Positions 9,851 to 27,829 are shown, counted from the first letter of the stretch. The stretch is 64,000 bases of DNA from Escherichia phage vB_EcoM_HZ_ZJUN4 (PP216085), one strand, 5' to 3'. Made by a program: numbers and translations. The notes: generated from the letters alone by a model not told the origin.

Positions 9851-11029
9851 ATGAGCACAGTTTTTAATACAAATCCAGTTGATGTTTTAAAAGAACCTAT
9901 GTTCTTCGGTTCAGGTCTTGGTATTGCGCGTTATGATATTCAACGTCATAAAGTTTTTGAAGATTTAACTGAAAAGCAGTTGTCATTTTTCTGGCGTCCT
10001 GAAGAAGTAAACTTGATGATGGATGCTGCACAATTTAACAAGCTTCCTCAGTATCAACAAGATATTTTTACTAATAACCTGAAGTATCAATCACTTCTAG
10101 ATAGCATTCAGGGTCGTGCACCGTCTGCTGTACTTATGTCGTTAATTTCAGACCCAAGTCTTGATACATGGGTTGCTACATGGACTTTTAGTGAAACTAT
10201 TCACAGTCGTTCATATACTCATATCATGCGAAATCTTTATACTGATCCATCGAAGGTATTTGATGAGATTGTACTAGATGAAGCTATCATGAAACGTGCT
10301 GAATCTATCGGTCGCTATTATGATGATGTTCTGACTAAAACCCGTGAATGGGAAAATGCTAAAGAATTTACAGAACTAGCTAAAGAATCTCCTGATGCTG
10401 TTTTTCGTTTAAATCGAGCTATTAAACAAGAAGCCGAAGCTAAACGAGCACTAATGAAATCTCTTTACCTCTGTTTGCACGTTATTAATGCCTTAGAAGC
10501 TATTCGTTTTTATGTATCTTTTGCATGTACCTTTAACTTCCATAAGAACATGGAAATCATGGAAGGTAATGCCAAGATTATGAAGTTCATTGCACGTGAT
10601 GAGCAGCTTCACCTTAAAGGCACCCAATATATTATTCGTCAACTTCAATCCGGTACTGATGGCGATGAATGGGTTAAAATTGCTCAAGAGTGTGAACAAG
10701 AAGCAGTTGATATTTTCATGGAAGTTAACCGCCAAGAAAAAGATTGGGCAGTTCATTTATTTAAAGATGGCGATGTTCCTGGATTAAATACAAATAGCAT
10801 GTGGAGCTTTATTGATTACTTAACTGTATCTCGTATGAAACAGTGCGGTCTTCCATGCCCAATTACCGATGCTCCGGTTAAACATCCATATCCTTGGATT
10901 CGTGAATATCTTAATTCTGATAATGTTCAATCCGCGCCACAAGAAGTAGAACTGTCATCTTACCTTGTTGCACAGATTGATAATGATGTTGATGATAAAG
11001 TTATGATGAGTTTTAAAAAATACTTTTAA
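9851..11029 (+). CDS. nrdB: ribonucleotide reductase small subunit, 392 aa, uninterrupted
   Basis: 392 aa continuous ORF MSTVFNTNPVDVLKEPMFFGSG...; ferritin-like di-iron ligand motifs; no intron. Confidence 0.96.
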   Translation: MSTVFNTNPVDVLKEPMFFGSGLGIARYDIQRHKVFEDLTEKQLSFFWRPEEVNLMMDAAQFNKLPQYQQDIFTNNLKYQSLLDSIQGRAPSAVLMSLISDPSLDTWVATWTFSETIHSRSYTHIMRNLYTDPSKVFDEIVLDEAIMKRAESIGRYYDDVLTKTREWENAKEFTELAKESPDAVFRLNRAIKQEAEAKRALMKSLYLCLHVINALEAIRFYVSFACTFNFHKNMEIMEGNAKIMKFIARDEQLHLKGTQYIIRQLQSGTDGDEWVKIAQECEQEAVDIFMEVNRQEKDWAVHLFKDGDVPGLNTNSMWSFIDYLTVSRMKQCGLPCPITDAPVKHPYPWIREYLNSDNVQSAPQEVELSSYLVAQIDNDVDDKVMMSFKKYF

Positions 11030-11033
11030 GGAG

Positions 11034-11056
11034 TGGGCCGTAAGGCCCATTTTATT
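11034..11056 (+). terminator. stem-loop/terminator between nrdB and denA
   Basis: TGGGCC-GTAA-GGCCCA (GNRA tetraloop) followed by TTTTATT. Confidence 0.5.
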
Positions 11057-12644
<1,588 letters not shown>

Positions 12645-12647
12645 GCT

Positions 12648-12701
12648 GTTTACAAGTCCCTCATGTTGTGTTACAGTAGTCTTACTGACACAACATGAGG
12701 A
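12648..12701 (+). promoter_or_regulatory. early promoter fused to 13-bp dyad that sequesters the alc RBS in read-through transcripts
   Basis: GTTTACA -35, -10 TACAGT; arms CCTCATGTTGTGT (12659-12671) and ACACAACATGAGG (12688-12700), the latter containing the GAGG Shine-Dalgarno. Confidence 0.5.
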
Positions 12702-12708
12702 CTTTATG

Positions 12709-13212
12709 ATGGATTTACAGCTTATTACTACTGAAATGGTCGTTGAAGCATATGGTGATACTACAGATGGGATTTCTGTATTTAAAGGAAATCGTCGAGT
12801 TGGATATATCACCGATCTTAAGAAAGATTTAGCTAAGCAAGTCAAGCGGAAAACGACCATCAAAGAATATCGAAATCGTCGTCTTGAGCAAGCCCGTGAT
12901 ATGCTTCCTGATGCGGTTGAGGAGATGAAAGTCTTTTTAGAAAATCAGCTTGCGAAATATGATTGTGATGTGTTCATTAATCAGACTCAACCTAATGTTC
13001 ATATCAATAATTGTAAATGCTACATCATCGTTAATCCTTTGACGGGAAAACATCGTCTTGGAATTAGTAATCCAAATCGTAGTGCATCAGATATGGCAGA
13101 AGATGTTGAGGCATGCTTTAAAATTTCTAAATCTCCGGCTGAACATCATATTTTAATTAACGGTCTTTCTCAAGACGATATTGTAGAGGTTATTAAAACT
13201 TTATGCATGTAA
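12709..13212 (+). CDS. alc: Alc (blocks elongation on cytosine-containing DNA), 167 aa
   Basis: MDLQLITTEMVVEAYGDTTDGISVFKGNRRVGYI... matches T4 Alc; ORF track begins one Met earlier (12706). Confidence 0.9.
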   Translation: MDLQLITTEMVVEAYGDTTDGISVFKGNRRVGYITDLKKDLAKQVKRKTTIKEYRNRRLEQARDMLPDAVEEMKVFLENQLAKYDCDVFINQTQPNVHINNCKCYIIVNPLTGKHRLGISNPNRSASDMAEDVEACFKISKSPAEHHILINGLSQDDIVEVIKTLCM

Positions 13213-13556
13213 GTAATTTTACAGCTGGATTGCTATTACTTGTAATAGCATTTGGCGGAACATCTATTATTTTAAAAAATAAGGTAGAAAGATTAGAAAC
13301 ATCGGTTACTGAAATTACAAAAACGGCCAATGAAAACGCTTTAGCATTAGATAATTTGCGAATTCAGTATAATTATATTGATGCGATGAATAATAAAAAT
13401 CGTGAGGCAATTGCTGCTATTGAGCGTGAAAATGAAAAACTGCGCAAAGATGCAAAGAAGGCGGATGTGGTGGCTCATAAGCCAGGATTGGTTGAAAAAC
13501 AAATCAACAACTCCTTCAACAAGTTCGCAGAAGACATCCAGGACCTTTCTAAATGA
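13203..13556 (+). CDS. pseT.3: i-spanin (inner-membrane spanin subunit), 117 aa
   Basis: N-terminal transmembrane helix (FTAGLLLLVIAFGGTSIIL) followed by coiled-coil-rich periplasmic domain; overlaps next ORF; T4 PseT.3 equivalent. Confidence 0.75.
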   Translation: MHVSNFTAGLLLLVIAFGGTSIILKNKVERLETSVTEITKTANENALALDNLRIQYNYIDAMNNKNREAIAAIERENEKLRKDAKKADVVAHKPGLVEKQINNSFNKFAEDIQDLSK

Positions 13557-13852
13557 TTAAACTATCGGCAGTAATATTATCTATTGGTCTTCTAGTTGGT
13601 TGTTCGACAAAGCCTCTAGAAGTAAAGAAAGAAACAGTTCATCCTAATTGGCCCGTGCAAATAAAGTCATATGATGAAGCTAAACTATCTTGGCAAGTTA
13701 AAGTTATCGATGGTAAAGCTTGGGTCGGTATGCCATTCGAAGATTCCCAGGAATTTCGTATTTGGCTTAATGATGTAAAACGATATGTACATGACCAAAA
13801 AACTATGATATGTTATTATCGTCAAGAGCTAAAAGAGGATAAATGCAAATGA
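13553..13852 (+). CDS. pseT.2: o-spanin (outer-membrane lipoprotein spanin subunit), 99 aa
   Basis: Signal peptide with lipobox LLVGC (MIKLSAVILSIGLLVGCS); T4 PseT.2 equivalent. Confidence 0.75.
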   Translation: MIKLSAVILSIGLLVGCSTKPLEVKKETVHPNWPVQIKSYDEAKLSWQVKVIDGKAWVGMPFEDSQEFRIWLNDVKRYVHDQKTMICYYRQELKEDKCK

Positions 13853-14075
13853 TTTCATGGCATCAATTTGAACATCTCAAAGGATTGATTTATGAATCCG
13901 AGATGGCTGCAATGATTTATGGACGCCAGATTCAACGGTTAGAATCTTTACCTCCAACTAATGATGTTTTATTAGCTCAATCTCGGGCTAATCTTAAAAA
14001 TGAATACCAAAATAAGTGGGGTAAAGCATCTAAAGACTTGCATGATTATATTCAATCATTAGTTGAGAAAAATAA

Positions 14076-14079
<4 letters not shown>
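13843..14079 (+). CDS. hypothetical protein, 78 aa
   Basis: ORF overlapping neighbours in operon-like arrangement. Confidence 0.5.
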
Positions 14080-15283
<1,204 letters not shown>

Positions 15284-15347
15284 TGGCTTTGCACCATGAA
15301 ACTTGGGATATTATTAATTGGCTTGAAGAAAATTATGTGAGGTAAAT

Positions 15348-15623
15348 ATGTTTCCGACTTACTCTAAAATCGTAGAAGTGGTGTTTAGCCAAATTATAGC
15401 TAATAATATGTTTGAAAAACTTGATAATGCAGCTGAGCTTCGAATCCACGCTCAAGTGACTCATGTATTGAACACTTTGCTTCCAGACCAGGTGGATTCT
15501 ATTGCAATTACGCTGTATCCAGGTTCCGCGCATATCATTGTCGTATTTGGTCTTGATGCTGAGTTAGTTATCAAAGGCGATATTCGCTTTGAATCACAGA
15601 CATCAGAATTCAAAGCAATTTAA
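15348..15623 (+). CDS. hypothetical protein, 91 aa
   Basis: ORF with GTGAGG RBS. Confidence 0.5.
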   Translation: MFPTYSKIVEVVFSQIIANNMFEKLDNAAELRIHAQVTHVLNTLLPDQVDSIAITLYPGSAHIIVVFGLDAELVIKGDIRFESQTSEFKAI

Positions 15624-15625
15624 TA

Positions 15626-15664
15626 GTTTACTTTACGGTAGAGTTGTGATATTATAGCTCTACC
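15626..15664 (+). promoter_or_regulatory. early sigma70-type promoter
   Basis: GTTTACT, extended -10 TGTGATATTAT flanked by GGTAGAG/CTCTACC dyad. Confidence 0.5.
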
Positions 15665-15685
15665 AAAACAAATGAGGAAATTGAA

Positions 15686-15922
15686 ATGCTAAGTGAAAAA
15701 CCAATTACTGCTAAAGAATTCCAAGAAAAAGTTAAACTATTTGCTCAGGAATTGGTAAATAAGGTTTCTGAACGATTTCCTGAAACATCGGTTCGTGTTA
15801 TTACCGAAACTCCTCGTTCAGTATTAGTAATTGTGAATCCAGGTGATGGTGACCAAATATCGCATCTCAAATTGGATTTTGATGGATTAGTTGAAGCACA
15901 AAGGGTGTATGGCGTACTATGA
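15686..15922 (+). CDS. hypothetical protein, 78 aa
   Basis: ORF with TGAGGAAA RBS. Confidence 0.5.
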   Translation: MLSEKPITAKEFQEKVKLFAQELVNKVSERFPETSVRVITETPRSVLVIVNPGDGDQISHLKLDFDGLVEAQRVYGVL

Positions 15923-16257
15923 TGAATTTAACTGATATAATTGATAATTGTCTTGAAAATGATACTGGCGATCATAGAGCGCTTGACTCTGAAACATCAC
16001 AGTTCATTAGAATAACTTTAATGAACGATACTCTGGTGAACAGTATTCATCCTTCTGTGTATGATGCTATTATTGTGACGAAGTATCCAGTTGAGCTTCA
16101 CAAAAAGATGACTGGTGCAGTTTTTATTGATAAGAAAAACCGCTTTAAAGATGGGCAGAATATAATTAGTTCTGTTATTAAAAGTATAACTAAACTTCGT
16201 CACGAAATTTATCGTGTTGAAACTGCTAAATCTGCTTATCTGGTGATTATGAAATGA
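15919..16257 (+). CDS. hypothetical protein, 112 aa
   Basis: ORF overlapping neighbours (ATGA couplings). Confidence 0.5.
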   Translation: MMNLTDIIDNCLENDTGDHRALDSETSQFIRITLMNDTLVNSIHPSVYDAIIVTKYPVELHKKMTGAVFIDKKNRFKDGQNIISSVIKSITKLRHEIYRVETAKSAYLVIMK

Positions 16258-16835
16258 AAGCGAGTACAGTACTTCAAATTGCATATTTAGTATCACAGGA
16301 ATCGAAATGTTGCTCCTGGAAGGTAGGAGCAGTAATTGAAAAGAATGGACGTATTATTTCTACCGGATATAATGGTTCACCTGCCGGGGGTGTGAACTGT
16401 TGTGATTATGCTACTGAGCAAGGTTGGTTGCTAAATAAACCTAAACATACTATCATTCAAGGTCATAAGCCTGAATGCGTATCATTTGGTTCAACTGATC
16501 GTTTTGTCTTGGCGAAAGAACATCGTAGTGCTCACTCGGAATGGTCGTCTAAAAATGAAATTCATGCTGAGCTAAATGCAATTTTGTTTGCTGCACGAAA
16601 TGGTTCTTCTATTGAAGGTGCTACTATGTATGTAACACTTTCTCCTTGTCCGGATTGCGCAAAAGCGATAGCTCAATCTGGTATTAAAAAGCTGGTTTAT
16701 TGCGAAACATACGATAAAAATAAACCTGGCTGGGATGATATTCTGCGAAATGCAGGTATTGAAGTGTTTAATGTTCCTAAGAAAAACTTGAATAAGTTAA
16801 ACTGGGAAAATATCAACGAATTCTGTGGTGAATAA
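16254..16835 (+). CDS. cd: dCMP deaminase, 193 aa
   Basis: Zinc-binding deaminase motifs HAE and PCxxC (SPCPDCAKAIAQSG); matches T4 Cd. Confidence 0.95.
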   Translation: MKASTVLQIAYLVSQESKCCSWKVGAVIEKNGRIISTGYNGSPAGGVNCCDYATEQGWLLNKPKHTIIQGHKPECVSFGSTDRFVLAKEHRSAHSEWSSKNEIHAELNAILFAARNGSSIEGATMYVTLSPCPDCAKAIAQSGIKKLVYCETYDKNKPGWDDILRNAGIEVFNVPKKNLNKLNWENINEFCGE

Positions 16836-17071
16836 TGAAATTTCGTTTGGTACAACTCACAGCAATTAGTTCTTATTCTAATGAGAACATCTCGTTTGCT
16901 GTAGAGTATAAGAAATATTTTTTCTCTAAATGGAAACAGTATTATAAGACAAATTGGGTTTGTATTGATAGACCATATAGTTGGAAATCTGATTTAGAAA
17001 AATGCCAAAAATTGCTTTCCACTCTTAAAGAACGTGGAACAACTCATATTAAAACTGTAATAGGTAAATAA
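16835..17071 (+). CDS. hypothetical protein, 78 aa
   Basis: ORF coupled to cd stop. Confidence 0.5.
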   Translation: MKFRLVQLTAISSYSNENISFAVEYKKYFFSKWKQYYKTNWVCIDRPYSWKSDLEKCQKLLSTLKERGTTHIKTVIGK

Positions 17072-17380
17072 ATGAAACTGACAACTGAACAGAAAGTAGC
17101 AATTCGTGAAATTTTGAAAACTAAATTGTCCATGGGTATTTCAAACGTGGTTTTTGAAAAGTCTGATGGTACTATTCGTACTATGAAAGGCACTCGTGAT
17201 GCTGACTTTATGCCAACTATGCAAACCGGTAAATTAACTGAATCTACTCGGAAAGAATCTACTGATATGATTCCAGTATTTGATGTTGAGCTTGGTGCAT
17301 GGCGAGGTTTTTCTATTGACAAATTGATTTCAGTTAATGGTATGAAAGTTGAGCATTTGCTCCAATTTATTGGTAAATAA
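17072..17380 (+). CDS. hypothetical protein, 102 aa
   Basis: ORF coupled to upstream ORF. Confidence 0.5.
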   Translation: MKLTTEQKVAIREILKTKLSMGISNVVFEKSDGTIRTMKGTRDADFMPTMQTGKLTESTRKESTDMIPVFDVELGAWRGFSIDKLISVNGMKVEHLLQFIGK

Positions 17381-17436
17381 ATGCTTTAAGAATTATTTGT
17401 TATTATTAATTCATCTGTTAACAAAAAGGAAAAACG

Positions 17437-17772
17437 ATGTCTGAAGTACAACAGCTACCAATTCGTGCTGTCGGTGAATATGTTATTTTAGTTTCTGAAC
17501 CTGCACAAGCCGGTGATGAAGAAGTCACAGAATCAGGACTTATCATCGGTAAACGTGTCCAAGGTGAAGTTCCTGAACTGTGTGTAGTTCACTCTGTTGG
17601 TCCTGATGTTCCTGAAGGTTTCTGCGAAGTTGGTGATTTGACTTCTCTTCCAGTTGGTCAAATTCGAAACGTTCCGCATCCTTTTGTAGCTCTGGGTCTT
17701 AAGCAGCCAAAAGAAATTAAACAAAAATTCGTTACTTGTCACTATAAAGCTATTCCATGTCTCTATAAGTGA
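17437..17772 (+). CDS. 31: gp31 co-chaperonin (GroES analogue for capsid folding), 111 aa
   Basis: [40 protein letters not shown]... matches T4 gp31. Confidence 0.93.
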
Positions 17773-17780
17773 TATAAATA
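17773..17780 (+). promoter_or_regulatory. late promoter (TATAAATA) upstream of rIII
   Basis: Exact TATAAATA on + strand directly after gene 31 stop. Confidence 0.45.
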
Positions 17781-17919
17781 ATAATATGAATTGGGTGTCG
17801 GAATAATAAGTTAACCGAACAATTCTATGTGGTAGTCTACAACTGAGAGATCTGTCGAAAGAAGATGAAATTCAGAAGAACGTGGCTACCGAGTTTTAAT
17901 CTCTAACGAGAATTTTTAA

Positions 17920-18168
17920 ATGATTAAACAATTACAACACGCTCTCGAACTGCAACGAAACGCATGGAATAATGGTCACGAAAACTATGGCGCATCTATT
18001 GATGTTGAAGCCGAAGCTCTTGAAATCCTGCGTTATTTCAAACATCTGAATCCTGCTCAAACTGCACTAGCTGCTGAGCTCCAGGAAAAAGATGAACTTA
18101 AATATGCTAAGCCTCTGGCTTCTGCTGCACGAAAAGCAGTTCGTCACTTTGTGGTAACACTGAAGTAA
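17920..18168 (+). CDS. rIII: rIII lysis-inhibition accessory protein, 82 aa
   Basis: MIKQLQHALELQRNAWNNGHENYGASIDVEAEALEILRYFKHLNPAQ... matches T4 RIII. Confidence 0.9.
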   Translation: MIKQLQHALELQRNAWNNGHENYGASIDVEAEALEILRYFKHLNPAQTALAAELQEKDELKYAKPLASAARKAVRHFVVTLK

Positions 18169-18288
18169 TTATGTTGACGAGGTTTATGGTTATCCTGTCG
18201 GTAAATATTCAAAACCTAAGTACCCCTTTGAGGGCTTTCGCAGGCAATGCCAATAAGTCCTGCATTTTCATTTAAAAGAGAATTTATA

Positions 18289-18465
18289 ATGGCAAAACAA
18301 GCTAAAGCAAAGAAAGCAGTTGAAAAGAAAGTTGGTGATTCTAAACGCGCTGGTTACAAGCGTGGGTCGAACTCTCGTATCAATCAAACTGTTGAGAAGA
18401 TCATGCGCCGAGCACGTGCGGTTCTTCGAGATGATGCTTCTCGTTTTGGTAAGCAGAAAGCATAA
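18289..18465 (+). CDS. small basic protein, 58 aa
   Basis: MAKQAKAKKAVEKKVGDSKRAGYKRGSNSR...; Lys/Arg-rich; ORF-track start at 18247 is upstream of the likely ATG. Confidence 0.5.
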   Translation: MAKQAKAKKAVEKKVGDSKRAGYKRGSNSRINQTVEKIMRRARAVLRDDASRFGKQKA

Positions 18466-18468
18466 GTT

Positions 18469-18497
18469 AAGGACTCCTTCGGGAGTCCTTTTTTATT
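18469..18497 (+). terminator. rho-independent terminator
   Basis: AAGGACTCC-TTCG-GGAGTCCTT followed by TTTTTTATTTT. Confidence 0.75.
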
Positions 18498-18517
18498 TTC
18501 CAAAGATTGCACAAAGT

Positions 18518-18548
18518 TGTTTACAGTATAGTTCCTTTGTGATAGTAT
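18518..18548 (+). promoter_or_regulatory. early sigma70-type promoter
   Basis: GTTTACA; extended -10 TGTGATAGTAT. Confidence 0.5.
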
Positions 18549-18575
18549 TATCTTACACAAACAAAGGAGAATAAA

Positions 18576-18908
18576 ATGAAAACGATTAATCTGAACGCTG
18601 CGGTTAAAGCTAAATGTTTCAATGGTGAATATAACGAAACTATGTGGTTCTTAATGGCAGTTGAAGGTGATATTATTGAAGTAGAAACAACAGAAGGTAT
18701 GGGAACAGATTTCACCTTTACAATTCAAGTTCATAATTTCTTTACTGGTTGGATTTATGAATTGAATACAGTAATCGTTGGAAAAATTGAACAAAATGAA
18801 TTAGGTGAATGGTATTATGTTACAGCCCGCCAACGTGCCGAACGCTTAATTGAGAAGATGAAAAAAGTTGGTAAACTTGACATGAAGCATTGGAAAGTAG
18901 TAAAATAA
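18576..18908 (+). CDS. hypothetical protein, 110 aa
   Basis: ORF with AAGGAG RBS. Confidence 0.55.
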   Translation: MKTINLNAAVKAKCFNGEYNETMWFLMAVEGDIIEVETTEGMGTDFTFTIQVHNFFTGWIYELNTVIVGKIEQNELGEWYYVTARQRAERLIEKMKKVGKLDMKHWKVVK

Positions 18909-18910
18909 TT

Positions 18911-18950
18911 GTTTACTTTGGTACAGGATATGATATTATATACCTGTACC
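18911..18950 (+). promoter_or_regulatory. early sigma70-type promoter
   Basis: GTTTACT; -10 region ATGATATTATAT enclosed by perfect 8-bp dyad GGTACAGG/CCTGTACC. Confidence 0.5.
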
Positions 18951-18963
18951 GCAATTAAACATC

Positions 18964-19341
18964 TTGGAGAATAAAATGAACTACATCAACTTTGAACGTA
19001 AATATGTTTCTAATGGTATTGCAGGTTCTATTGATACTATCTGCCTTTGGAAACATCAAAATGGATCAGTATGCGAAATTGAACAGTATATGACTCCTAA
19101 CTACGTTTATATGCGATTTGAAAATGGCATCACGGTTTCAATCACGAAAGAAGGTTCTTCTTTTAAAATCGCATTAGATGATGATTTCCGTCAACGCGAT
19201 TTAGGTACTCATCCTTGCTGGAATGGCGTCAATCGTAAGCTTCTGGTTAAAACTTGGATTCGTCATATTCTGAGTAACAGAGCTAAACCTGAGCATCTTG
19301 AAGCAATCTTTGATGTAGTTCTTAACGAATTTGATATTTAA
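18964..19341 (+). CDS. hypothetical protein, 125 aa
   Basis: ORF with GGAGAA RBS. Confidence 0.55.
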   Translation: MENKMNYINFERKYVSNGIAGSIDTICLWKHQNGSVCEIEQYMTPNYVYMRFENGITVSITKEGSSFKIALDDDFRQRDLGTHPCWNGVNRKLLVKTWIRHILSNRAKPEHLEAIFDVVLNEFDI

Positions 19342-19381
19342 AATAAAACAGGGGCTTCGGCCCCTTACTGAGGAAAATACT

Positions 19382-19656
19382 ATGTTTATGACTACTTATT
19401 TTGATACCCGCAAAAATTTCTGTGAAGTGGTTTTCTCTAAGGCACCTAAAGACCTTCCTGCTCATTTGCAGCCTACCAGTGAATCGATTATACAGTCTGC
19501 CCTTTAGAGTTTCGTACTGTAAATGGGCGTGATACTCTAGCTATCGCTAAACTCAATCGTGAAATTGACATTGACCCTTCAATTGCGCGTGAAATTAACA
19601 TTTCTGACATTGGTGGCGGTAATGTTAAATCGCACGGTTTTCAGATGAGGTTCTAA
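19382..19656 (+). pseudogene. small gene split over two overlapping reading frames (frameshift or pseudogene)
   Basis: ATG at 19382 with GAGGA RBS opens a 41-codon frame ending at TAG 19505-19507; the -1 frame is open from 19483 to TAA 19654-19656 with no start codon until three codons before its stop. Confidence 0.4.
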
Positions 19657-19853
19657 TGAAATTCTTTTTAGGTCAAACTGTTGAATTAAAGGGAGTCGGT
19701 ATACCTGGATTAATTTCTAAGGTTCTACCTCCATTTAAATGGAGAGACGTTCAAATAAAAGAAGCTTATATTGTTTCCTGGGTAGATGGAAATGAAGACC
19801 TTCGTATGGGTGATGAATTATCTCCTATCTATGGATTAAAGGAATTAGTATGA
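19656..19853 (+). CDS. hypothetical protein, 65 aa
   Basis: ORF coupled to the upstream frame (TAATG). Confidence 0.5.
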   Translation: MKFFLGQTVELKGVGIPGLISKVLPPFKWRDVQIKEAYIVSWVDGNEDLRMGDELSPIYGLKELV

Positions 19854-20056
19854 ATATAATTAATAAGATTTTTGGAATTCAGTACATTAAGGTCACATAT
19901 AAAGTAACATATAAAGGTCCGTATACCGATGAACATGAAGAACCGCAAGTTAAGTCTATTATATTAGAAAAGGACCCTAACTGGCCAATTGAATTTCGTC
20001 TTCCTTGCTATGGTCATTGGGCTGATGTTGAAATTATAAGTATTGAAAATGTCTGA
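19850..20056 (+). CDS. hypothetical protein, 68 aa
   Basis: ORF coupled to upstream ORF. Confidence 0.5.
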   Translation: MNIINKIFGIQYIKVTYKVTYKGPYTDEHEEPQVKSIILEKDPNWPIEFRLPCYGHWADVEIISIENV

Positions 20057-20507
20057 GCTAGAGATAAGAAGCAATTTTAGATGGCCATCATGTGCATTAA
20101 GCAATTTCGCCCAATGGCCTTTCGTTATGGATGGTATCCAATTTGGAGGTCTCGAAGGATTCCTCCAAGGATGTAAGGTGAAAAATGTTGAACGGCAAAG
20201 ACGTATATTTGGGTTATCCGGGCTTGCCGCCCAACAAGCTGGAAGGTCTTATGCTAGAGCTCAGGACCGTGGCACGTTGTTCTGGCTTGGAACTCCGTTT
20301 TCAAGATATTCCGAAGCATGGAAAGAATTATACACAAATGCATATTTTGAAGCAGCGATCCAAAACAGGGGCTTTCGTGAGGCATTACAAGCTTCGAAAG
20401 GAAAAGTTTTGAAGCACAGCATGGCTAGCGGTCTAACAAAAGATGATACAATACTAACCGAAGCTGAATTTATTGATGTGTTAAACCTATTAAGAGACTC
20501 TCTATGA
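20043..20507 (+). CDS. NADAR (YbiA-like, DUF1768) domain protein, 154 aa
   Basis: Motif block SNFAQWPFVMDGIQFGGLEGFLQGCKV resembles the E. coli YbiA core (DFSNFAAWPIKVDGKTWPTSEHYFQAQKF) from memory. Confidence 0.6.
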   Translation: MKMSELEIRSNFRWPSCALSNFAQWPFVMDGIQFGGLEGFLQGCKVKNVERQRRIFGLSGLAAQQAGRSYARAQDRGTLFWLGTPFSRYSEAWKELYTNAYFEAAIQNRGFREALQASKGKVLKHSMASGLTKDDTILTEAEFIDVLNLLRDSL

Positions 20508-21334
20508 AGCCTACTATTTTGACTGATATTGATGGAGTATGTTTAAGCTGGCAATCAGGCCTTCCTTATTTTGCTCAGAAATATAATCTTCCGTTAGAAC
20601 ATATTTTAAAAATGATCCAAGATGAGAAATTTATTTCTCCAGGTAAACTCTTTAATTGTGACGAAGAACTTGGCGTCAAGTTAATTGAAAAATACAATCG
20701 TTCAGATTTTATTCGTTACTTGTCTCCGTATAAAGATGCCCTGTGTGTAATTAACAAATTAAAAGAAGATTATAATTTTGTAGCTGTTACAGCATTGGGT
20801 GATTCTATTGACGCTCTGTTGAATCGTCAATTTAATTTGAACGCTCTTTTTCCTGGTGCCTTCTCAGAAGTAATGATGTGTGGTCATGATTCTTCAAAAG
20901 AAGAGCTGTTCAAAAAGGCAAAAGAGAAATATAACGTAATTTGTTATATTGACGATCTCGCTCATCACTGCGATCATGCGAGTGAAATATTAAATGTTCC
21001 AGTTTATTGGATGGCTCGAGGAGAGCGTGACAATATTCCAAAAACTGCGCAGCGAGTTTATACATGGAATGATGTAGAAAATAAGCTTTTTTCGCCGAAG
21101 GAAAATAAAGAAAGTTTTGATAGTGAAAAAGCTATAAAAGATTTAATTGAGAAGATGGTTAAAAACGATTCTTTTCCTTGGAACACTACCTGGAGAACGC
21201 CTGGATTAAATCCTTATAATCATCCATATCAGACACATCCGTTTCAGACATGGAACTATATTAAACCTGGTGGCATAGAGTATTTGTATAATAGACCTAC
21301 TAGTGGTGATAATATTTTTCAAGGAGCATTCTAA
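20504..21334 (+). CDS. HAD-superfamily 5'(3')-nucleotidase-like protein with C-terminal extension, 276 aa
   Basis: N-terminal HAD motif I ILTDIDGV and downstream YIDD motif; C-terminal about 90 aa unrelated. Confidence 0.55.
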   Translation: MKPTILTDIDGVCLSWQSGLPYFAQKYNLPLEHILKMIQDEKFISPGKLFNCDEELGVKLIEKYNRSDFIRYLSPYKDALCVINKLKEDYNFVAVTALGDSIDALLNRQFNLNALFPGAFSEVMMCGHDSSKEELFKKAKEKYNVICYIDDLAHHCDHASEILNVPVYWMARGERDNIPKTAQRVYTWNDVENKLFSPKENKESFDSEKAIKDLIEKMVKNDSFPWNTTWRTPGLNPYNHPYQTHPFQTWNYIKPGGIEYLYNRPTSGDNIFQGAF

Positions 21335-21600
21335 TGTTTGTTGTTCATACTATTTATGAAAATGAAGGTAATACTACACGTGATTACGGTCACGTAAATC
21401 AATTTTTTAGATGCAATCCAGAATTCCGTGCTCAAAAAGATGAACGAATTTTTAAAAAATGTGTAGAACAAGGTTTCATTTACGTCAAGCACTGGATGCA
21501 AGGAAATAAAGTTAGAACTACATATCATAAGTCTTTGCCTGAGCTTAATGATGAATTGATTTATAATAGAGATGTAAATCAAACTCTGAAGGATGAATAA
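21334..21600 (+). CDS. hypothetical protein, 88 aa
   Basis: ORF coupled on both sides (ATGTTTG / TAATG). Confidence 0.5.
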   Translation: MFVVHTIYENEGNTTRDYGHVNQFFRCNPEFRAQKDERIFKKCVEQGFIYVKHWMQGNKVRTTYHKSLPELNDELIYNRDVNQTLKDE

Positions 21601-23060
21601 TGATTCTTAAAATTCTGAATGAAATAGCATCTATTGGTTCAACTAAGCAGAAGCAAGCAATTCTTGAAAAGAATAAAGATAATGAATTGCTTAAACGAGT
21701 ATATCGTCTGACTTATTCTCGTGGGTTACAGTATTATATCAAGAAATGGCCTAAACCTGGTATTGCTACCCAGAGTTTTGGAATGCTGACTATTACCGAT
21801 ATGCTTGACTTCATTGAATTCACGTTAGCTACTCGGAAATTGACTGGAAATGCTGCAATTGAGGAATTAACTGGATATATCACCGATGGTAAAAAGGATG
21901 ATGTTGAAGTTTTGCGTCGAGTTATGATGCGAGACCTTGAATGCGGTGCTTCAGTATCTATTGCAAACAAAGTTTGGCCAGGTTTAATTCCTGAACAACC
22001 TCAAATGCTGGCAAGTTCTTATGATGAAAAAGGCATTAGTAAGAATATCAAGTTTCCAGCCTTTGCGCAGTTAAAAGCAGATGGAGCTCGGTGTTTTGCT
22101 GAAGTCCGAGGCGATGAATTAGATGATGTTCGTCTTTTATCACGAGCTGGTAATGAATATCTAGGATTAGATCTTCTTAAGGAAGAGTTAATCAAAATGA
22201 CTGCTGAAGCCCGCCAGATTCATCCAGAAGGTGTGTTAATTGATGGCGAATTGGTATACCATGAGCAAGTTGAAAAGGAACCAGAAGGCCTAGATTTTCT
22301 TTTTGATGCTCCTGAAATCAGTAAAGCTAAAGAGTTTGCCGAAGTAGCTGAATCTCGTACTGCTTCTAATGGAATCGCCAATAAATCTTTAAAGGGAACT
22401 ATTTCAGAAAAAGAAGCCCAATGCATGAAGTTTCAGGTCTGGGATTATGTTCCGTTAGTAGAAATATACGGTCTTCCGGCGTTTCGTTTAAAATATGATG
22501 TACGTTTTTCTAAACTAGAACAAATGACATCAGGATATGATAAAGTAATTTTAATTGAAAACCAGGTAGTAAATAACCTAGATGAAGCTAAGGTAATTTA
22601 TAAAAAATATATTGACCAGGGTCTTGAAGGTATTATTCTCAAAAATACCGATGGATTGTGGGAAAATGCTCGTTCAAAAAATCTCTATAAATTTAAAGAA
22701 GTAATTGATGTTGATTTAAAAATTGTAGGAATTTATCCTCACCGTAAAGACCCTACTAAAGCGGGTGGATTTATTCTTGAATCAGAGTGTGGAAAAATTA
22801 AAGTAAATGCAGGTTCAGGCTTAAAAGATAAAGCCGGTGTAAAATCACATGAACTTGACCGTACTCGCATTATGGAAAACCAAAATTATTATATTGGAAA
22901 AATTCTAGAGTGCGAATGCAACGGTTGGTTAAAATCTGATGGCCGCACTGATTACGTTAAATTATTTCTTCCGATTGCGATTCGTTTGCGTGAAGATAAA
23001 ACTAAAGCTAATACATTCGAGGATGTATTTGGTGATTTTCATGAGGTAACTGGTCTATGA
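21600..23060 (+). CDS. 30: ATP-dependent DNA ligase, 486 aa
   Basis: MILKILNEIASIGSTKQKQAILEKNKDNELLKRVYRLTY...; adenylation lysine motif region KADGAR; matches T4 DNA ligase. Confidence 0.96.
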   Translation: MILKILNEIASIGSTKQKQAILEKNKDNELLKRVYRLTYSRGLQYYIKKWPKPGIATQSFGMLTITDMLDFIEFTLATRKLTGNAAIEELTGYITDGKKDDVEVLRRVMMRDLECGASVSIANKVWPGLIPEQPQMLASSYDEKGISKNIKFPAFAQLKADGARCFAEVRGDELDDVRLLSRAGNEYLGLDLLKEELIKMTAEARQIHPEGVLIDGELVYHEQVEKEPEGLDFLFDAPEISKAKEFAEVAESRTASNGIANKSLKGTISEKEAQCMKFQVWDYVPLVEIYGLPAFRLKYDVRFSKLEQMTSGYDKVILIENQVVNNLDEAKVIYKKYIDQGLEGIILKNTDGLWENARSKNLYKFKEVIDVDLKIVGIYPHRKDPTKAGGFILESECGKIKVNAGSGLKDKAGVKSHELDRTRIMENQNYYIGKILECECNGWLKSDGRTDYVKLFLPIAIRLREDKTKANTFEDVFGDFHEVTGL

Positions 23061-23245
23061 AAGCTTACTTAGAAACAATTGTCGTGGCTCAAAAAGAAGG
23101 TGGAGATGTTTCTACTTCTGTATCACAAATCGTTCTTGAATTTGTAGATGCATATGCTTATAATAAATTTACAGAAACATTTGATGCCTATGAAAAAGGG
23201 CCAAAGTTTGAAATATACCGTACTCTCTTACCATTAGATTATTAA
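23057..23245 (+). CDS. hypothetical protein, 62 aa
   Basis: ORF coupled to ligase stop. Confidence 0.45.
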   Translation: MKAYLETIVVAQKEGGDVSTSVSQIVLEFVDAYAYNKFTETFDAYEKGPKFEIYRTLLPLDY

Positions 23246-23266
23246 AGGCCTTCGGGCCTTTAATTT
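23244..23266 (+). terminator. rho-independent terminator after ligase operon
   Basis: AAAGGCC-TTCG-GGCCTTT followed by AATTTTA. Confidence 0.6.
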
Positions 23267-23274
23267 TATAAATA
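23267..23274 (+). promoter_or_regulatory. late promoter (TATAAATA) for alt
   Basis: Exact TATAAATA 23 nt upstream of alt ATG. Confidence 0.6.
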
Positions 23275-23297
23275 GAATAAACACTAGAGAGGATATG

Positions 23298-25391
23298 ATG
23301 GAACTCATTACAGAATTATTTGACGAAGATACTACTCTTCCGATTACAAACTTAAATCCAAAGAAGAAAATACCGCAAATTTTTTCAGTTCATGTTGATG
23401 ACGCAATTGAACAACCAGGCTTTCGTTTATGTACCTATACATCTGGAGGTGATACTAACCGTGATCTAAAGATGGGCGATAAAATGATGCACATTGTTCC
23501 TTTTACATTAACTGCTAAAGGTTCAATTGCTAAATTGAAAGGTCTCGGTCCAAGCCCAATTAATTACATCAATTCAGTTTTTACTGTTGCGATGCAAACG
23601 ATGCGTCAGTATAAAATTGATGCCTGCATGCTTCGTATTCTTAAGTCTAAAACTGCCGGTCAAGCTCGACAAATTCAAGTTATTGCTGATAGACTTATCC
23701 GTAGTCGTTCGGGTGGCAGATACGTCCTTCTTAAGGAACTCTGGGATTACGATAAAAAGTATGCATATATTCTTATACATCGCAAAAATGTATCACTAGA
23801 AGACATTCCAGGAGTTCCAGAAATTAGTACCGAGCTCTTTACTAAAGTTGAATCGAAGGTCGGCGATGTTTATATCAATAAAGATACTGGAGCTCAAGTA
23901 ACTAAAAATGAGGCAATTGCAGCATCTATTGCGCAAGAAAATGATAAACGTTCTGACCAAGCTGTAATCGTTAAAGTTAAAATTTCCCGTAGAGCAATTG
24001 CACAAAGTCAGTCATTAGAATCTTCTAGATTTGAAAGTGAATTATTCCAGAAATATGAATCTACCGCAGCTAATTTCAATAAACCTGCTACAGCTCCTTT
24101 AATTCCCGAAGCAGAAGAAATGAAGCTTGGAATTAATTCATTAGCTTCTAAAACTAAGGCAGCAAAAATTATTGCCGAAGGAACCGCAGATGAACTTCAC
24201 TATGACTATAAATTCTTTTCAAAAAGTGAGGTTAATGAAGTTTCTGAAAAAATTAAAGACGTAATTTTTAACGCGATCAAAAATGAACCAACTACTTCAA
24301 TAAAATGTTTAGAGAAGTATGCAGCAGCTATTAATAAATTCTTTGAAGAATATAAAGATACTTGGCTTGATAAACATAATAAAACTCGTAAAGGGCAGTC
24401 AGATGAAGTCTGGGAAGAAATAACTAAAAATTCCTGGAACGCAGCAAAAACTAAATTCCTCAAACGAATGATTTATAGCTTTTCTGGAATTGGTGCAGGT
24501 CCAATGATTGATATTACTATTGCCCGTGATGGTTCTAAATATACTCCATCGCAAAAGCGCGGCATTAGAGAGTATTGTGGATCAGGATATACTGACATCA
24601 ATAATCTTCTTTTAGGCCGCTACAATCCAGAACGATATGATGTAATGAGTGAAAAAGAAATTGAATCTGCGATAAATAATTTAGATTCAGCTTTTGAAAA
24701 TGGTGACCGTATACCAGAAGGCATTACAGTTTATCGTGCTCAAAGTATGACTGCTCCTATATACGAAGCGCTAGTTAAAAATAAAGTGTTCTATTTCAGA
24801 AATTTTGTATCTACTTCTTTAACTCCTATCATTTTTGGACGTTTTGGAATTACACATGCTGGTATCGGTCTTTTAGAACCAGAAGCTCGTAATGAATTAA
24901 CAGTTGATAAAAATGAAGAAGGAATAACTATTAATCCAAACGAAATAAGAGCGTATAAAGAAAATCCTGAATACGTTAAAGTTCAAATAGGATGGGCAAT
25001 TGATGGAGCTCATAAAGTTAATGTTGTATATCCAGGAAGTCTCGGAATAGCAACAGAAGCTGAAGTTATTCTACCACGCGGATTGATGGTCAAAGTTAAT
25101 AAAATAACTGATGCTTCTAATAATGACGGAACAACATCTAATAATACAAAACTCATTCAAGCTGAAGTTATGACTACGGAAGAACTCACCGAATCGGTAA
25201 TTTATGACGGTGACCGTCTAATGGAAACGGGTGAAGTAGTTGCAATGACAGATGATATTGAAATAGAAGACAGAGTTGACTTTGCATCATTTGTTTCATC
25301 AAATGTTAAACAGAAAGCAGAATCATCTCTCGGAATTATTGCGTCTTGCATAGATATTACAAACATGCCTTACAAGTTCGTTCAAGGATAA
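23298..25391 (+). CDS. alt: Alt ADP-ribosyltransferase (capsid-packaged, injected), 697 aa
   Basis: MELITELFDEDTTLPITNLNPKKKIPQIFSVHVDDAIEQPGFRLCTYTSGGDTNRDLKMGDKMMHIV... matches T4 Alt; C-terminal ART triad elements YRAQ, FVSTSL, EAEVILPRG. Confidence 0.93.
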   Translation: MELITELFDEDTTLPITNLNPKKKIPQIFSVHVDDAIEQPGFRLCTYTSGGDTNRDLKMGDKMMHIVPFTLTAKGSIAKLKGLGPSPINYINSVFTVAMQTMRQYKIDACMLRILKSKTAGQARQIQVIADRLIRSRSGGRYVLLKELWDYDKKYAYILIHRKNVSLEDIPGVPEISTELFTKVESKVGDVYINKDTGAQVTKNEAIAASIAQENDKRSDQAVIVKVKISRRAIAQSQSLESSRFESELFQKYESTAANFNKPATAPLIPEAEEMKLGINSLASKTKAAKIIAEGTADELHYDYKFFSKSEVNEVSEKIKDVIFNAIKNEPTTSIKCLEKYAAAINKFFEEYKDTWLDKHNKTRKGQSDEVWEEITKNSWNAAKTKFLKRMIYSFSGIGAGPMIDITIARDGSKYTPSQKRGIREYCGSGYTDINNLLLGRYNPERYDVMSEKEIESAINNLDSAFENGDRIPEGITVYRAQSMTAPIYEALVKNKVFYFRNFVSTSLTPIIFGRFGITHAGIGLLEPEARNELTVDKNEEGITINPNEIRAYKENPEYVKVQIGWAIDGAHKVNVVYPGSLGIATEAEVILPRGLMVKVNKITDASNNDGTTSNNTKLIQAEVMTTEELTESVIYDGDRLMETGEVVAMTDDIEIEDRVDFASFVSSNVKQKAESSLGIIASCIDITNMPYKFVQG

Positions 25392-25394
25392 ATC

Positions 25395-27452
25395 ATGGAA
25401 CTTATTACAGAATTATTTGACGGCGCTTCGGCGCCGGTTGTTAACTTAAATCCTAAGCATAAAATACCTCAAATTTTTGCTATTCAAGCAGGTGAAGAAA
25501 GCGTGCTTCCTGGATTTAGATTTTGTACATACACCTCTGGCGGTGATACAAACAAAAACGTTAAGCCAGGCGATAAAATGATGCATATCGTAATGATAGG
25601 TGTTAATGAGAAACTATCATTAGTTAAACTTAAAAACTTGGGTGGAAATCCAATTGGTGTCATTAATGCGGTTTTTGATACTGCTCTTCAAACAATGAAA
25701 CAGTATAAAATTGACGCATGCCTATTCCGCGTACTAAAGAGTAAAACAAACGGTGCAGCTCGTCAAATGCAAGTTATTGCCGACCGTTTAGTACGTACTA
25801 AAGGAGCAGGTCGATATGTTCTTTTAAAAGAAATCTGGGACTATGATAAGAAATATGCATATATTATGGTTTACCGTAAAAATGCCAATTTAGAAGACAT
25901 TCCAGGTGTACCTCCTATTTCAACTGAGTTATTCACAAAGGTTGAATCAAAGGTTGGTGATGTTTATGTAGATGTTAAAACAGGTAATGCTGTTCCTAAA
26001 GCTGTTGCTGTTGCTGCTTCTATTGCTTTAGAAAATGATAAGCGCACAGATCAAGCTGTTATTCAGAAAACTAAAATTAGTCGTCGATTAGCAGCACAAG
26101 CTCAATATTCTACTGTCGATGCTTCGCTTCAGGGTGATAGCTTCGCTGCTAAGAAATACCAAGAGTTTGAATCTAAAGTTCCGGTATATAAAGCAGAAGG
26201 ACCAATGAACTCCGGCGTTATTCAGGTTGGTTCAAACTTCAGCAAAGGAGCTATCGGTGGTATGAGAAGTGCTTCTCGTTTTAAATCTAATGATTATGAA
26301 CTAGAAAGCTTCCGAAATCATATTGCATTGGCTCATGCACGTTTACGTGATCCATCTATCAAGTTACAGAGCGATATAACATATCAAGGTTCTCAAGAAT
26401 ATTTAAAGAATAAAGAATTTTTTGATTATAAAACTGATAAAATTTTAAGCGATCTTGCTGACATTAATATTTCTAATAGCTTTGATGTTATTAAGAAAAT
26501 TGTCAATGATTTAGTTAAAGGTTCTAAAGCCACGCCAGATGAAAAGGTAGCTATTGTTCAATTTGTCATGAATGGCATTTATAAATTGATTAATGAGTCT
26601 GCTTCTCAAGCGTATGAATATGCAAGTACTGAAGTACCCCCAAAAGGATTAACTCGGGCTGAGTCTGATGTAATTGAAGATTATTGCGCAGATTCATATG
26701 TTGAAATGAACTCGTTCCTTTTAGGTAAACCAGATTCTACTCGTGAAGAATATATGGAACGAGCTATTAAACACATCGAGACAATGGATTCTGCCTTTGC
26801 CAAAGGATCAGTTCTTCCTCCAGGAACTACGCTTTACCGTGGACAAGAAGTTACCTTTAAAACTTTACGTCATAATATTGAAAATAAAATGTTCTATTTC
26901 AAGAACTTCGTATCCACATCGCTTAAACCAAATATCTTCGGTGAGTATGGTAAAAACTATATGGCTCTAGATGATTCTGGTGCAGTATTTTCTGGTGAAG
27001 GAGAAGGTTCAGTTGATGCTGAAGATTTAATGCATATGGGTAGTCACTCTGCTTATGCGAATGAAGATGCTGAAACTAGCGTAGGTATGGTAATTAAAGG
27101 GGCTGAGCGAATTAAAGTTATCGTTCCAGGTCATTTATCAGGATTTCCATCAGAAGCTGAAGTTATTTTACCACGTGGAATTTTGCTGAAGATTAATAAA
27201 GTGAGTACGTACATGATGAAAGAAACTGCTTATAACAAGTATCTAATCGAAGGCACAATCGTTCCTCCTTCTGAACAATTAGAAGAATCGGTATATGATG
27301 GCGATCATCTAATGGAAACTGGTGAAGTTCGTCCAATGGTTGGATTTAATCAATTCCTTGTAGAAGAATCAAAAGAAGAGGAAAACGAAGTTTCTCAAAT
27401 CTTGGCTTCTTTGGTTAACATCAATGAAATGTCTAAAAAGTTCAAGATGTAG
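25395..27452 (+). CDS. second Alt-like ADP-ribosyltransferase paralog, 685 aa
   Basis: Same MELITELFD leader and conserved N-terminal/central block as alt, divergent middle region, retains ART triad elements (YRGQ, FVSTSL, EAEVILPRG); AAGGA RBS 6 nt upstream. Confidence 0.85.
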   Translation: MELITELFDGASAPVVNLNPKHKIPQIFAIQAGEESVLPGFRFCTYTSGGDTNKNVKPGDKMMHIVMIGVNEKLSLVKLKNLGGNPIGVINAVFDTALQTMKQYKIDACLFRVLKSKTNGAARQMQVIADRLVRTKGAGRYVLLKEIWDYDKKYAYIMVYRKNANLEDIPGVPPISTELFTKVESKVGDVYVDVKTGNAVPKAVAVAASIALENDKRTDQAVIQKTKISRRLAAQAQYSTVDASLQGDSFAAKKYQEFESKVPVYKAEGPMNSGVIQVGSNFSKGAIGGMRSASRFKSNDYELESFRNHIALAHARLRDPSIKLQSDITYQGSQEYLKNKEFFDYKTDKILSDLADINISNSFDVIKKIVNDLVKGSKATPDEKVAIVQFVMNGIYKLINESASQAYEYASTEVPPKGLTRAESDVIEDYCADSYVEMNSFLLGKPDSTREEYMERAIKHIETMDSAFAKGSVLPPGTTLYRGQEVTFKTLRHNIENKMFYFKNFVSTSLKPNIFGEYGKNYMALDDSGAVFSGEGEGSVDAEDLMHMGSHSAYANEDAETSVGMVIKGAERIKVIVPGHLSGFPSEAEVILPRGILLKINKVSTYMMKETAYNKYLIEGTIVPPSEQLEESVYDGDHLMETGEVRPMVGFNQFLVEESKEEENEVSQILASLVNINEMSKKFKM

Positions 27453-27506
27453 TTTACAAGTCCCTCGTGTTGTGTTATAATAATCTTACTGACATAACAT
27501 GAGGAA
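27453..27506 (+). promoter_or_regulatory. early promoter plus RBS-sequestering dyad (second copy of the module upstream of alc)
   Basis: GTTTACAAGTCCCTCGTGTTGTGTTATAAT...CTTACTGACATAACATGAGGA; arm pairing includes one G-U wobble relative to the alc copy. Confidence 0.5.
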
Positions 27507-27512
27507 TACAAA

Positions 27513-27803
27513 ATGAAATCTTCTTTGCGCTTTTTAGGTCAAGAACTTGTAGTTGAAGGCGTTATTCCTGCTGATAATGCTTTTAATGAAGCGGTTTACG
27601 ACGAATTTATCAAAATTTTTGGAACAGATAAAAAGTTCGGAATTTTTCCTTCTGAAAATTTTTCAAAGCCAGAACAGACTGAAAGCATTTTCCAGGGTGT
27701 AGTAACAGGTAAATTTGAATCAGAAGCTCCGGTAAAAATTGAAGTTTATATTGAAGACAGTTTAGTTGCTTCAGTTGCTGCTTTTATTTCATTCCGTAAA
27801 TAA
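27513..27803 (+). CDS. hypothetical protein, 96 aa
   Basis: ORF MKSSLRFLGQELVVEGVIPADNAFNEAVYDEF... with GAGGA RBS and own promoter. Confidence 0.55.
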   Translation: MKSSLRFLGQELVVEGVIPADNAFNEAVYDEFIKIFGTDKKFGIFPSENFSKPEQTESIFQGVVTGKFESEAPVKIEVYIEDSLVASVAAFISFRK

Positions 27804-27807
27804 AAAT

Positions 27808-27829
27808 ATGGGGACCTTTCGGTCCCCAT
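27808..27829. terminator. bidirectional terminator between convergent units (gene 54 on - strand, 96-aa ORF on + strand)
   Basis: ATGGGGACC-TTTC-GGTCCCCAT; U-run ATTTTTA on the - strand side. Confidence 0.65.

Follow-up and report, generated by a model that had tools for sequence, protein, structure and literature searches.

The stretch analysed here, 64,000 nucleotides (nt) of Escherichia phage vB_EcoM_HZ_ZJUN4 (PP216085) and hereafter called the window, belongs to a Tequatrovirus (T4-like) genome, with the region 11500-14000 being 97-98% identical to about 500 Tequatrovirus genomes (megablast) and its plus strand being the counterpart of the T4 minus strand. It carries two copies of a 54-nt module in which an early promoter, a hairpin and a Shine-Dalgarno (SD) sequence are packed together, one lying between rnlA and alc and the other between the second of two alt paralogues and a homolog of alt.-3 (Table 1). 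Pfam searching confirms alc (PF17527), the two alt paralogues (ADP-ribosyltransferase) and Alt.-3 (DUF5498). Two ATG codons are found at the start of alc, at 12706 and 12709, the second being the one annotated in T4.

Table 1. The two modules, their parts and the flanking genes and signals (window coordinates).
Feature	Position	Strand	Remarks
Module copy 1 (promoter, hairpin and SD sequence)	12648..12701	+	GTTTACAAGTCCCTCATGTTGTGTTACAGTAGTCTTACTGACACAACATGAGGA; between the rnlA stop codon and alc
Copy 1 -35 hexamer TTTACA (inside GTTTACA)	12649..12654	+	sigma-70 scan; invariant in 25 orthologous modules
Copy 1 5' arm CCTCATGTTGTGT	12659..12671	+	in the -35/-10 spacer
Copy 1 -10 hexamer TACAGT	12672..12677	+	in the hairpin loop; TGn at 12669-12671 just before
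Copy 1 predicted start A	12684	+	in the loop, 7 nt past the -10 and 4 nt short of the 3' arm; deduced from promoter geometry
Copy 1 3' arm ACACAACATGAGG	12688..12700	+	holds the SD GAGG, 12697-12700
Module copy 2	27452..27505	+	GTTTACAAGTCCCTCGTGTTGTGTTATAATAATCTTACTGACATAACATGAGGA; begins with the final G of the second alt's TAG stop codon
Copy 2 -35 hexamer TTTACA	27453..27458	+	11/12 match, with TG
Copy 2 5' arm CCTCGTGTTGTGT	27463..27475	+	in the spacer
Copy 2 -10 hexamer TATAAT with TGn	27476..27481	+	sigma-70 scan
Copy 2 predicted start A	27488	+	deduced
Copy 2 3' arm ACATAACATGAGG	27492..27504	+	SD GAGG, 27501-27504; two G-U pairs with the 5' arm
rnlA (RNA ligase 1)	11484..12644	+	upstream neighbour; its transcripts would enter module 1; stop codon 12642-12644
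alc (inhibitor of host transcription)	12706..13212	+	PF17527, E 4.5e-92
Second alt paralogue	25395..27452	+	upstream neighbour; its transcripts would enter module 2
alt.-3 homolog (96 amino acids, DUF5498, function unassigned)	27513..27803	+	Pfam
Late-promoter consensus TATAAATA	23267..23274	+	just 5' of the first alt gene
Terminator-like hairpin, both strands	27808..27829	.	closes the alt/alt.-3 unit against gene 54

Both copies score as sigma-70 promoters with an extended -10 element, TTTACA-17-TACAGT in copy 1 and TTTACA-17-TATAAT in copy 2, each with TG. The two arms form 13 contiguous pairs around a loop of 16 nt in either copy; the stem of copy 1 is entirely Watson-Crick, and that of copy 2 has G-U at pairs 5 and 10 of the 13. 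The likeness of the copies (repeat family D8) spans from the G of GTTTACA to GAGGA, and their flanks are unrelated. An initial annotation of this DNA had described a near-identical 54-nt module upstream of alc and of the 96-amino-acid open reading frame (ORF), and direct reading of the sequence bears this out with 91% identity, although copy 2 lies one base to the left of the 27453-27506 assigned to it. The 13-bp pairing with GAGG in the 3' arm was likewise correctly described, the single G-U wobble given for copy 2 was not, and the placing of the -10 and a probable start in the loop agrees with the sigma-70 scan and with the conserved columns of 25 orthologous modules, the start itself being a prediction. 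As to further copies, a pattern search of the window at up to three mismatches gave these two sites only (chance expectation 0.00), with an analogue of unrelated stem being present at 18519-18578.

Hairpin closure takes place 4-17 nt 3' of the predicted start. No U-tract follows the stem in either copy, the tails being ACTTTATG in copy 1 and AATACAAAATG / AATACAAA in copy 2, and neither module was picked up by a terminator scan of 11000-29000; an intrinsic (Rho-independent) terminator was ruled out on these two grounds and on that of the 16-nt loop. The same scan detected no terminator ahead of either module, including the interval between rnlA and module 1. No TATAAATA late promoter occurs in or near either module. 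A search of the whole window against Rfam 15 gave zero matches at the gathering score, and around copy 1 only sub-threshold hits to generic hairpins (miRNA-type). The T4 GenBank records have no promoter features annotated at either site; in the record of one related phage, a predicted promoter is marked over the alt.-3 copy.

The sense RNA is predicted to fold at -28.0 kcal/mol (z -4.6) for copy 1 and at -20.4 kcal/mol (z -4.4) for copy 2, with none of 200 shuffled sequences folding as well, and the hairpin is still predicted within contexts of 150 nt. In copy 1 the extended helix runs from 12654 to 12704 with a 1-nt bulge and ends two bases before the AUG. RNAs beginning at the predicted start have structure no stronger than that of shuffled sequences (z near 0). 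Since the G-U pairs of the sense strand turn into C-A on the antisense strand, the latter gives a poor fold in copy 2 (-12.5 kcal/mol, z -1.1). In the long transcript form of both copies the predicted probability of the SD being unpaired, P(unpaired), is 0.00, and in the short, promoter-initiated form of copy 1 it is 0.43.

Comparison of the rnlA-alc junction in other phages provides the evidence that the helix is under selection. Junctions collected in eight further genera of the Tevenvirinae and in 39 contigs of IMG/VR yielded 25 distinct alc modules of 60-64 nt each, counted from GTTTACA to ATG. Their invariant or near-invariant columns are GTTTACA, the TG, the TA...T within the -10 and the A with which transcripts are predicted to start (+1), and the sequence between these promoter elements turns over completely. 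A strong hairpin with its 5' arm in the spacer is nevertheless present in 23 of the 25, and the mean pairing energy of cognate arms is -17.2 kcal/mol versus -9.0 for non-cognate arms. Plain MAFFT alignment of the modules (A2) puts the 3' arms out of register; covariation was therefore counted twice, first with per-sequence registers and then on a covariance-model alignment. The first count gives canonical pairs in 85.9% of cells compared with 37-51% for slid arms and 65.5 +/- 1.7% for shuffled ones (0/1000 shuffles reach the observed value), while in the covariance-model alignment of 27 sequences 92.5% of cells are paired compared with 71.3 +/- 1.5% shuffled (0/500) and 39-49% slid, both structural alignments having been fitted to the structure and their pairing counts being somewhat inflated. 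Compensatory (double) changes occur in 11 of 14 pairs, with a covariation score of 0.564 versus 0.212. A covariance model (R1) built from non-Tequatrovirus modules only recovers copy 1 at 12648-12711 (33 bits, E 4.9e-5) and copy 2 at 27452-27515 (38 bits, E 2.7e-6). Given the size of the effect and the complete turnover of sequence, a selected RNA helix is the only reasonable reading.

The modules at alc can be divided by the position of the SD. In class A, comprising 20 of the 25 and including Tequatrovirus, Karamvirus, Gelderlandvirus, Jiaodavirus, Dhakavirus and several further lineages, the SD falls within the 3' arm, which stops 3-9 nt short of the ATG. Directly 3' of the -35, the stem has in every case an anti-SD sequence (CCTC, TCTCC or TCCTC) at its base. 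This arrangement forces loops of 16-26 nt, a size that costs stability and is sensible only if the SD region is the required partner. Long forms of class A modules have a predicted P(unpaired) of 0.00 in nearly all cases (0.10 in L155 and 0.25 in L168), and for RNAs from the predicted +1 the value is 0.1-0.7. The design as a whole persists across full turnover of the stem in at least five named genera. These results support the two proposals of the initial annotation on function, namely that read-through RNA would hide the ribosome-binding site, for which the P(unpaired) of 0.00 in long forms, the covariation and the SD in 20/25 3' arms speak, and that transcripts from the internal promoter, which are without the 5' arm, would leave it free. 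Folding of the two transcript forms, with z values near -4.5 for long RNAs and near 0 for those from the predicted start, is in line with both.

Gaprivervirus arrives at the same predicted outcome by another geometry. Its rnlA junction has a terminator-like hairpin and then a hairpin that takes in the SD, the strand opposite the SD being located between the -10 and the predicted start, with P(unpaired) predicted at 0.25 for the long form and 0.66 for the short one. In the loci concerned (L142, L141 and L167 at about 735-800; L125 at 289-603) the post-rnlA hairpin GGGGTGTACAAGCCCC is followed by TTCTTTCT, with a TGTACA -35 in the loop, and after the hairpin there is an extra ORF, a partial alc duplicate, with alc following 10 nt further on. 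A separate observation on the loop is that a CTTAC-like motif around the predicted +1 is kept across genera (columns ~34-38 of alignment A2; window 12681-12685 and 27485-27489); its A is nearly invariant while the stem turns over, which suggests a constraint on the initiation region of these early promoters.

With blastn, the 54-mer matched 499 phage records at 995 places, or two per genome, all of the records being Tequatrovirus, and T4 carries both copies at the same two positions, with predicted starts near T4 136300 (alc) and 123057 (alt.-3). The module is a fixed two-copy feature of this genus. An exact scan of IMG/VR with the 14-nt TTTACAAGTCCCTC matched at least 120 loci; only two of these were real modules, nearly all being chance hits to unrelated contigs. 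Variants within Tequatrovirus keep the sense-strand pairing through transitions between A-U and G-U and between G-C and G-U; T4 has G-U at two positions compared with A-U and G-C in copy 1 of the window, and locus L171 has a further U-G.

The copy upstream of alt.-3 has a history of its own. GTTTACA directly after the alt stop codon also precedes alt.-3 in Gaprivervirus, Dhakavirus, Mosigvirus, Marfavirus, Karamvirus and Kanagawavirus, and in all of these except Kanagawavirus (5/6) the alt.-3 spacer holds only a small local hairpin such as CCACAAGGATGTGG. Pairing between the SD and the spacer at alt.-3 was found in none of the six, and the alc-type stem at this position is specific to Tequatrovirus. 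As the orthologous alt.-3 promoters are without the stem, the Tequatrovirus copy looks like a replacement by an alc-type module. The simplest account is that the inner ~45 bp of an older alt.-3 promoter were replaced by the alc module, through recombination or gene conversion between the common -35 and SD ends in the Tequatrovirus lineage. Within Dhakavirus, one alc module (L153) and the alt.-3 module of phage IME341 have identical 3' halves (87% identity overall), an apparent exchange which resembles the alc-to-alt.-3 event and fits recombination of the type proposed for promoter-early stem-loop (PeSL) cassettes. A conversion of the Mosigvirus alc promoter from the alt.-3 type was also considered; the identity is 78-79%, which is not above that to other genera. 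Recombinational spread, as proposed by the initial annotation from the duplication, is thus supported in the limited form of a probable lineage-specific replacement at alt.-3, and a dispersed cassette is rejected by the blastn result of two copies per genome and zero outside Tequatrovirus.

The small spacer hairpin of the other alt.-3 promoters is itself recurrent. In the form CCACA-(A/T)GGA(T/A/G)-TGTGG it occurs in the alt.-3 promoters of five other genera (L175-L180, ~440-470), and hairpins of this CCACA...TGTGG type are also present in T4 promoters 5' of rIIA.1 and nrdC.4 (T4 2457 and 50972) and in the putative rnlA promoter (window 11470-11484). It shows some covariation (GCAC/GTGC, CCAC/GTGG).

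A census of 30 candidate early promoters lying directly 5' of ORFs in T4 shows to what extent hairpins of the alc kind recur. Spacer-to-leader duplexes with z <= -4 are present at 13 of these promoters, and at about eight (motB.2, nrdC.8, regB, denV, 30.8, ndd.4, alc and alt.-3) the SD falls fully within the 3' arm. The stems are unrelated to one another, the alc/alt.-3 pair being the sole near-identical one in the census. In the window, 18519-18578 (T4 ~130309, 5' of the 30.8 homolog) is a third cassette of early promoter and hairpin, with a stem unrelated to that of alc/alt.-3 and a 3' arm, ACAAAGGA, that covers the SD; the alc-based covariance model matches it with 23.9 bits (E 0.009). Extended -10 promoters at window positions 4567, 15627 and 18912 (also 3854 and 42690) have hairpins which straddle or lie within the -35/-10 spacer and leave the SD free, the promoter at 15627 being the early promoter Pe133295 mentioned in the T4 record.

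Published time-course omics of T4 place alc, alt.-3, regB, denV, motB.2 and nrdC.8 among the genes with early RNA and early protein. In the same data rnlA has early RNA but late protein, the RNA of alt.-1 and alt.-2 is middle, and Alt protein keeps rising late. The TATAAATA late-promoter consensus lies 5' of the first alt gene, and late alt transcripts should therefore enter module 2.

The interpretation favoured here, to which a probability of roughly 0.6 is given, is that each module would act as an early promoter joined to a translational gate, transcripts arriving from upstream being silent and those from the internal promoter translatable. Host sigma-70 RNA polymerase would initiate from the internal early promoter, near A12684 (alc) or A27488 (alt.-3), giving a leader of some 22-25 nt that would carry the 3' arm alone, with the GAGG of the SD free, and alc or alt.-3 would be translated in the first minutes of infection. 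Upstream transcripts, coming via rnlA for alc and via the alt genes with their late promoter for alt.-3, would carry both arms and fold into the 13-bp helix (about -20 to -28 kcal/mol), which at alc would reach to 2 nt before the AUG. The helix would bury the SD and 30S subunits could not bind, the promoter's own spacer serving as the anti-SD strand. Synthesis of Alc and Alt.-3 would in this way be tied to early promoter activity and insulated from middle and late read-through.

Several observations weigh against this interpretation. For the short alt.-3 leader of the window, folding predicts weak pairing between the SD and codons further downstream, with a P(unpaired) of 0.10. At alc, class B (two Tegunavirus and one Kanagawavirus module) has a stem of 13-15 bp set tightly around the -10 with the SD 2-3 nt outside, and there is no significant hairpin at alc in Mosigvirus and locus L166; SD masking is therefore common and not universal. 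In T4, five hairpins tight around the -10 leave the SD free (dmd, mobD.2, ipII, ipI and 30.7). The inflation of the pairing counts, noted above, belongs here also.

The main alternative, which we consider unlikely, is that the hairpin is mainly a PeSL-type element acting on upstream transcripts, either as an attenuator or terminator or as a barrier at the 3' end protecting the rnlA or alt message once it has been processed. The SD overlap would then follow only from the crowding of promoter, hairpin and ribosome site into some 60 nt. PeSL stem-loops of RB49 and phi1 lower the expression of a downstream lacZ as much as a strong terminator does (PMC2839356), a hairpin that spans the -10 and leaves the SD free is seen at the alc promoters of Tegunavirus and Kanagawavirus as well as at some five early promoters of T4, and Gaprivervirus has a terminator-like hairpin at the very same rnlA-alc junction. 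Since about half of the strong promoter-straddling hairpins of T4 free the SD, those at early promoters may serve a different and broader purpose. Yet neither copy has a U-tract or a match in the terminator scan, and what the two copies have in common is the stem and not the tail. The loops of class A (16-26 nt) are moreover a poor geometry for a terminator, class B showing that tight loops are possible, and the stem base is exactly an anti-SD/SD pairing in 20 of the 25 distinct alc modules. A role as gate and a role on upstream RNA are not mutually exclusive.

The inverted repeat could also act at the level of DNA, either as the operator of a dimeric regulator that shuts off early promoters or as a cruciform modulating promoter strength. 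It does flank the -10 of a strong promoter, and the mechanism by which early promoters of T4 are shut off has been described as incompletely understood (PMC3014915). However, G-U pairs of the sense strand are C-A mismatches on the other strand and in a cruciform, and the antisense fold of copy 2 is insignificant. The stems differ wholly from promoter to promoter within a genome and from genus to genus, beyond what any one protein could recognise; with the unrelated stems and the sense-specific G-U pairs, this explanation was rejected as very improbable. That the hairpin has no function at all, the copies being alike through recent duplication or gene conversion and the pairing incidental, is hardly credible. 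The copies are indeed 91% identical and copy 2 sits in a rearranged region, in which T4 has the alt.-1/alt.-2 remnants and the window a second full alt. Against this, the stems covary across genera over a complete turnover of sequence, and both copies have been kept in all 499 matching Tequatrovirus records (995 places).

Confirmation of the gate would add an early-promoter version to the classic hairpins with which T4 hides ribosome sites. Alc, with its part in host transcription shut-off, and Alt.-3 would be made solely while early promoters fire, whatever reads through later, which would help to explain sharp protein timing in a dense phage genome with few terminators and long overlapping transcripts. 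It would also change the reading of T4-type PeSL stem-loops, and for phage engineering it would supply a small part, 60 nt long, by which translation is made to depend on where a transcript started. More tentatively, and perhaps a little short of even odds, the alc and alt.-3 modules may be the most visible cases of a general and so far undescribed rule in the Tevenvirinae by which a gene is translated solely from transcripts of its own promoter. If so, many stem-loops called PeSL terminators would be translational insulators, and such insulators would set the immediate-early protein programme independently of read-through transcription.

A few further features of the surroundings were recorded. 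The tandem alt paralogues, at 23295-25391 and 25395-27452, are full-length (698 and 685 amino acids) and their DNA is 72-84% identical across the repeat segments detected; T4 has one alt gene, with the alt.-1/alt.-2 remnants standing where the window has its second alt copy. Directly before the start of denA, at 11035-11056, there is a terminator-like hairpin TGGGCCGTAAGGCCCA followed by TTTTATT, which may restrict the upstream (nrdB) transcription that reaches rnlA and alc. Directly 5' of rnlA, at 11466-11495, GATGCTTCCACATGGAGTGTGGTACTAT resembles a MotA-box middle promoter, with TGCTTC about 12 nt ahead of TGgTACTAT; this putative promoter is not among the entries of the published T4 middle promoter table. 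A run of short direct repeats of TCATCATCCTCGTCTTCGTC-like type (family D2) lies at 46556-46653 in a minus-strand coding region, the opposite strand probably coding for an acidic, Asp/Glu-rich low-complexity stretch.

Among known systems, the modules have much in common with the PeSL cassettes of T4-type phages (Arbiol et al., 2010, PMC2839356; Comeau et al., 2014, PMC4122927). The stem-loops of these are described as terminators or attenuators with the SD outside the stem, positioned just 5' of the promoter in the PST/T4 pair and between the -35 and -10 or over the -10 in RB49/phi1, and their repeated copies have been proposed as recombination sites (PMC2839356, PMC4122927). Like them, the modules are compact and intergenic, with a strong sigma-70-like early promoter and a stable stem-loop followed by SD and start codon, and both copies fit the PST/T4 promoter consensus TTTACW-N17-TAYWAT. 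The probable alc-to-alt.-3 replacement and the sharing of 3' halves in Dhakavirus fit the recombination-site idea but do not prove it. Unlike PeSLs, the modules have a 3' arm which is the SD region and lies 3' of the start site, a position not described for PeSLs; they are also without a terminator tail and number two copies per genome only.

Promoter-coupled terminators, in which the hairpin supplies the -35, the T-tract is in the spacer and the 3' end falls about 10 bp upstream of the start (Fletcher et al., 2026 preprint, 10.64898/2026.08.19.745784), are similar in that one short intergenic stretch between tandem genes ends the upstream unit and promotes the next. The module hairpin, in contrast, closes 3' of the start site and has no T-tract, and the Gaprivervirus rnlA junction (L142) alone resembles this type. 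The endoribonuclease RegB inactivates early T4 mRNAs at GGAG Shine-Dalgarno sequences (PMC3014915) and so, as the modules would do, confines early-gene translation to the first minutes by way of the SD. It is a trans-acting nuclease needing GGAG, whereas the SD regions of alc and alt.-3 (TGAGGA) are without it, and the hairpin would therefore be an independent, cis-acting route.

The closest relatives are the T4-type genes whose ribosome site is sequestered in long transcripts, namely e, soc, 49, I-TevI, I-TevII, I-TevIII, mobE and segB (PMC3014915). For e and I-TevI a late promoter inside the structure releases the ribosome site, repression of gene e being about 100-fold (PMC3014915), which agrees with the analogy to the lysozyme gene drawn in the initial annotation. 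Neither alc nor alt.-3 is among the sequestered genes named in that 2010 review, and the literature yielded neither mapped start sites for T4 nor a previous account of a hairpin at alc, its older T4 part having been incompletely covered, so that a prior mention is possible. As with e, soc, 49 and I-TevI, long upstream transcripts of the modules are predicted to fold into a helix hiding the SD and/or AUG; the promoter, here recognised by consensus and conservation, lies in the DNA encoding the 5' strand or the loop and would give shorter transcripts without that strand; and the design is kept in relatives. The modules differ in using a sigma-70 early promoter, GTTTACA-17-TGnTAnnnT, where the described members use the late TATAAATA, in having the promoter's own -35/-10 spacer as the 5' strand, and in a reversed timing by which translation would be confined to the early rather than the late period. 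The late promoter is a trait of all described members and not a requirement of the mechanism. As the principle is known from genes e, soc, 49 and I-TevI, current understanding is not overturned, and the alc/alt.-3 cassette is best regarded as a well-supported new example of this T4 device rather than as a new kind of element.

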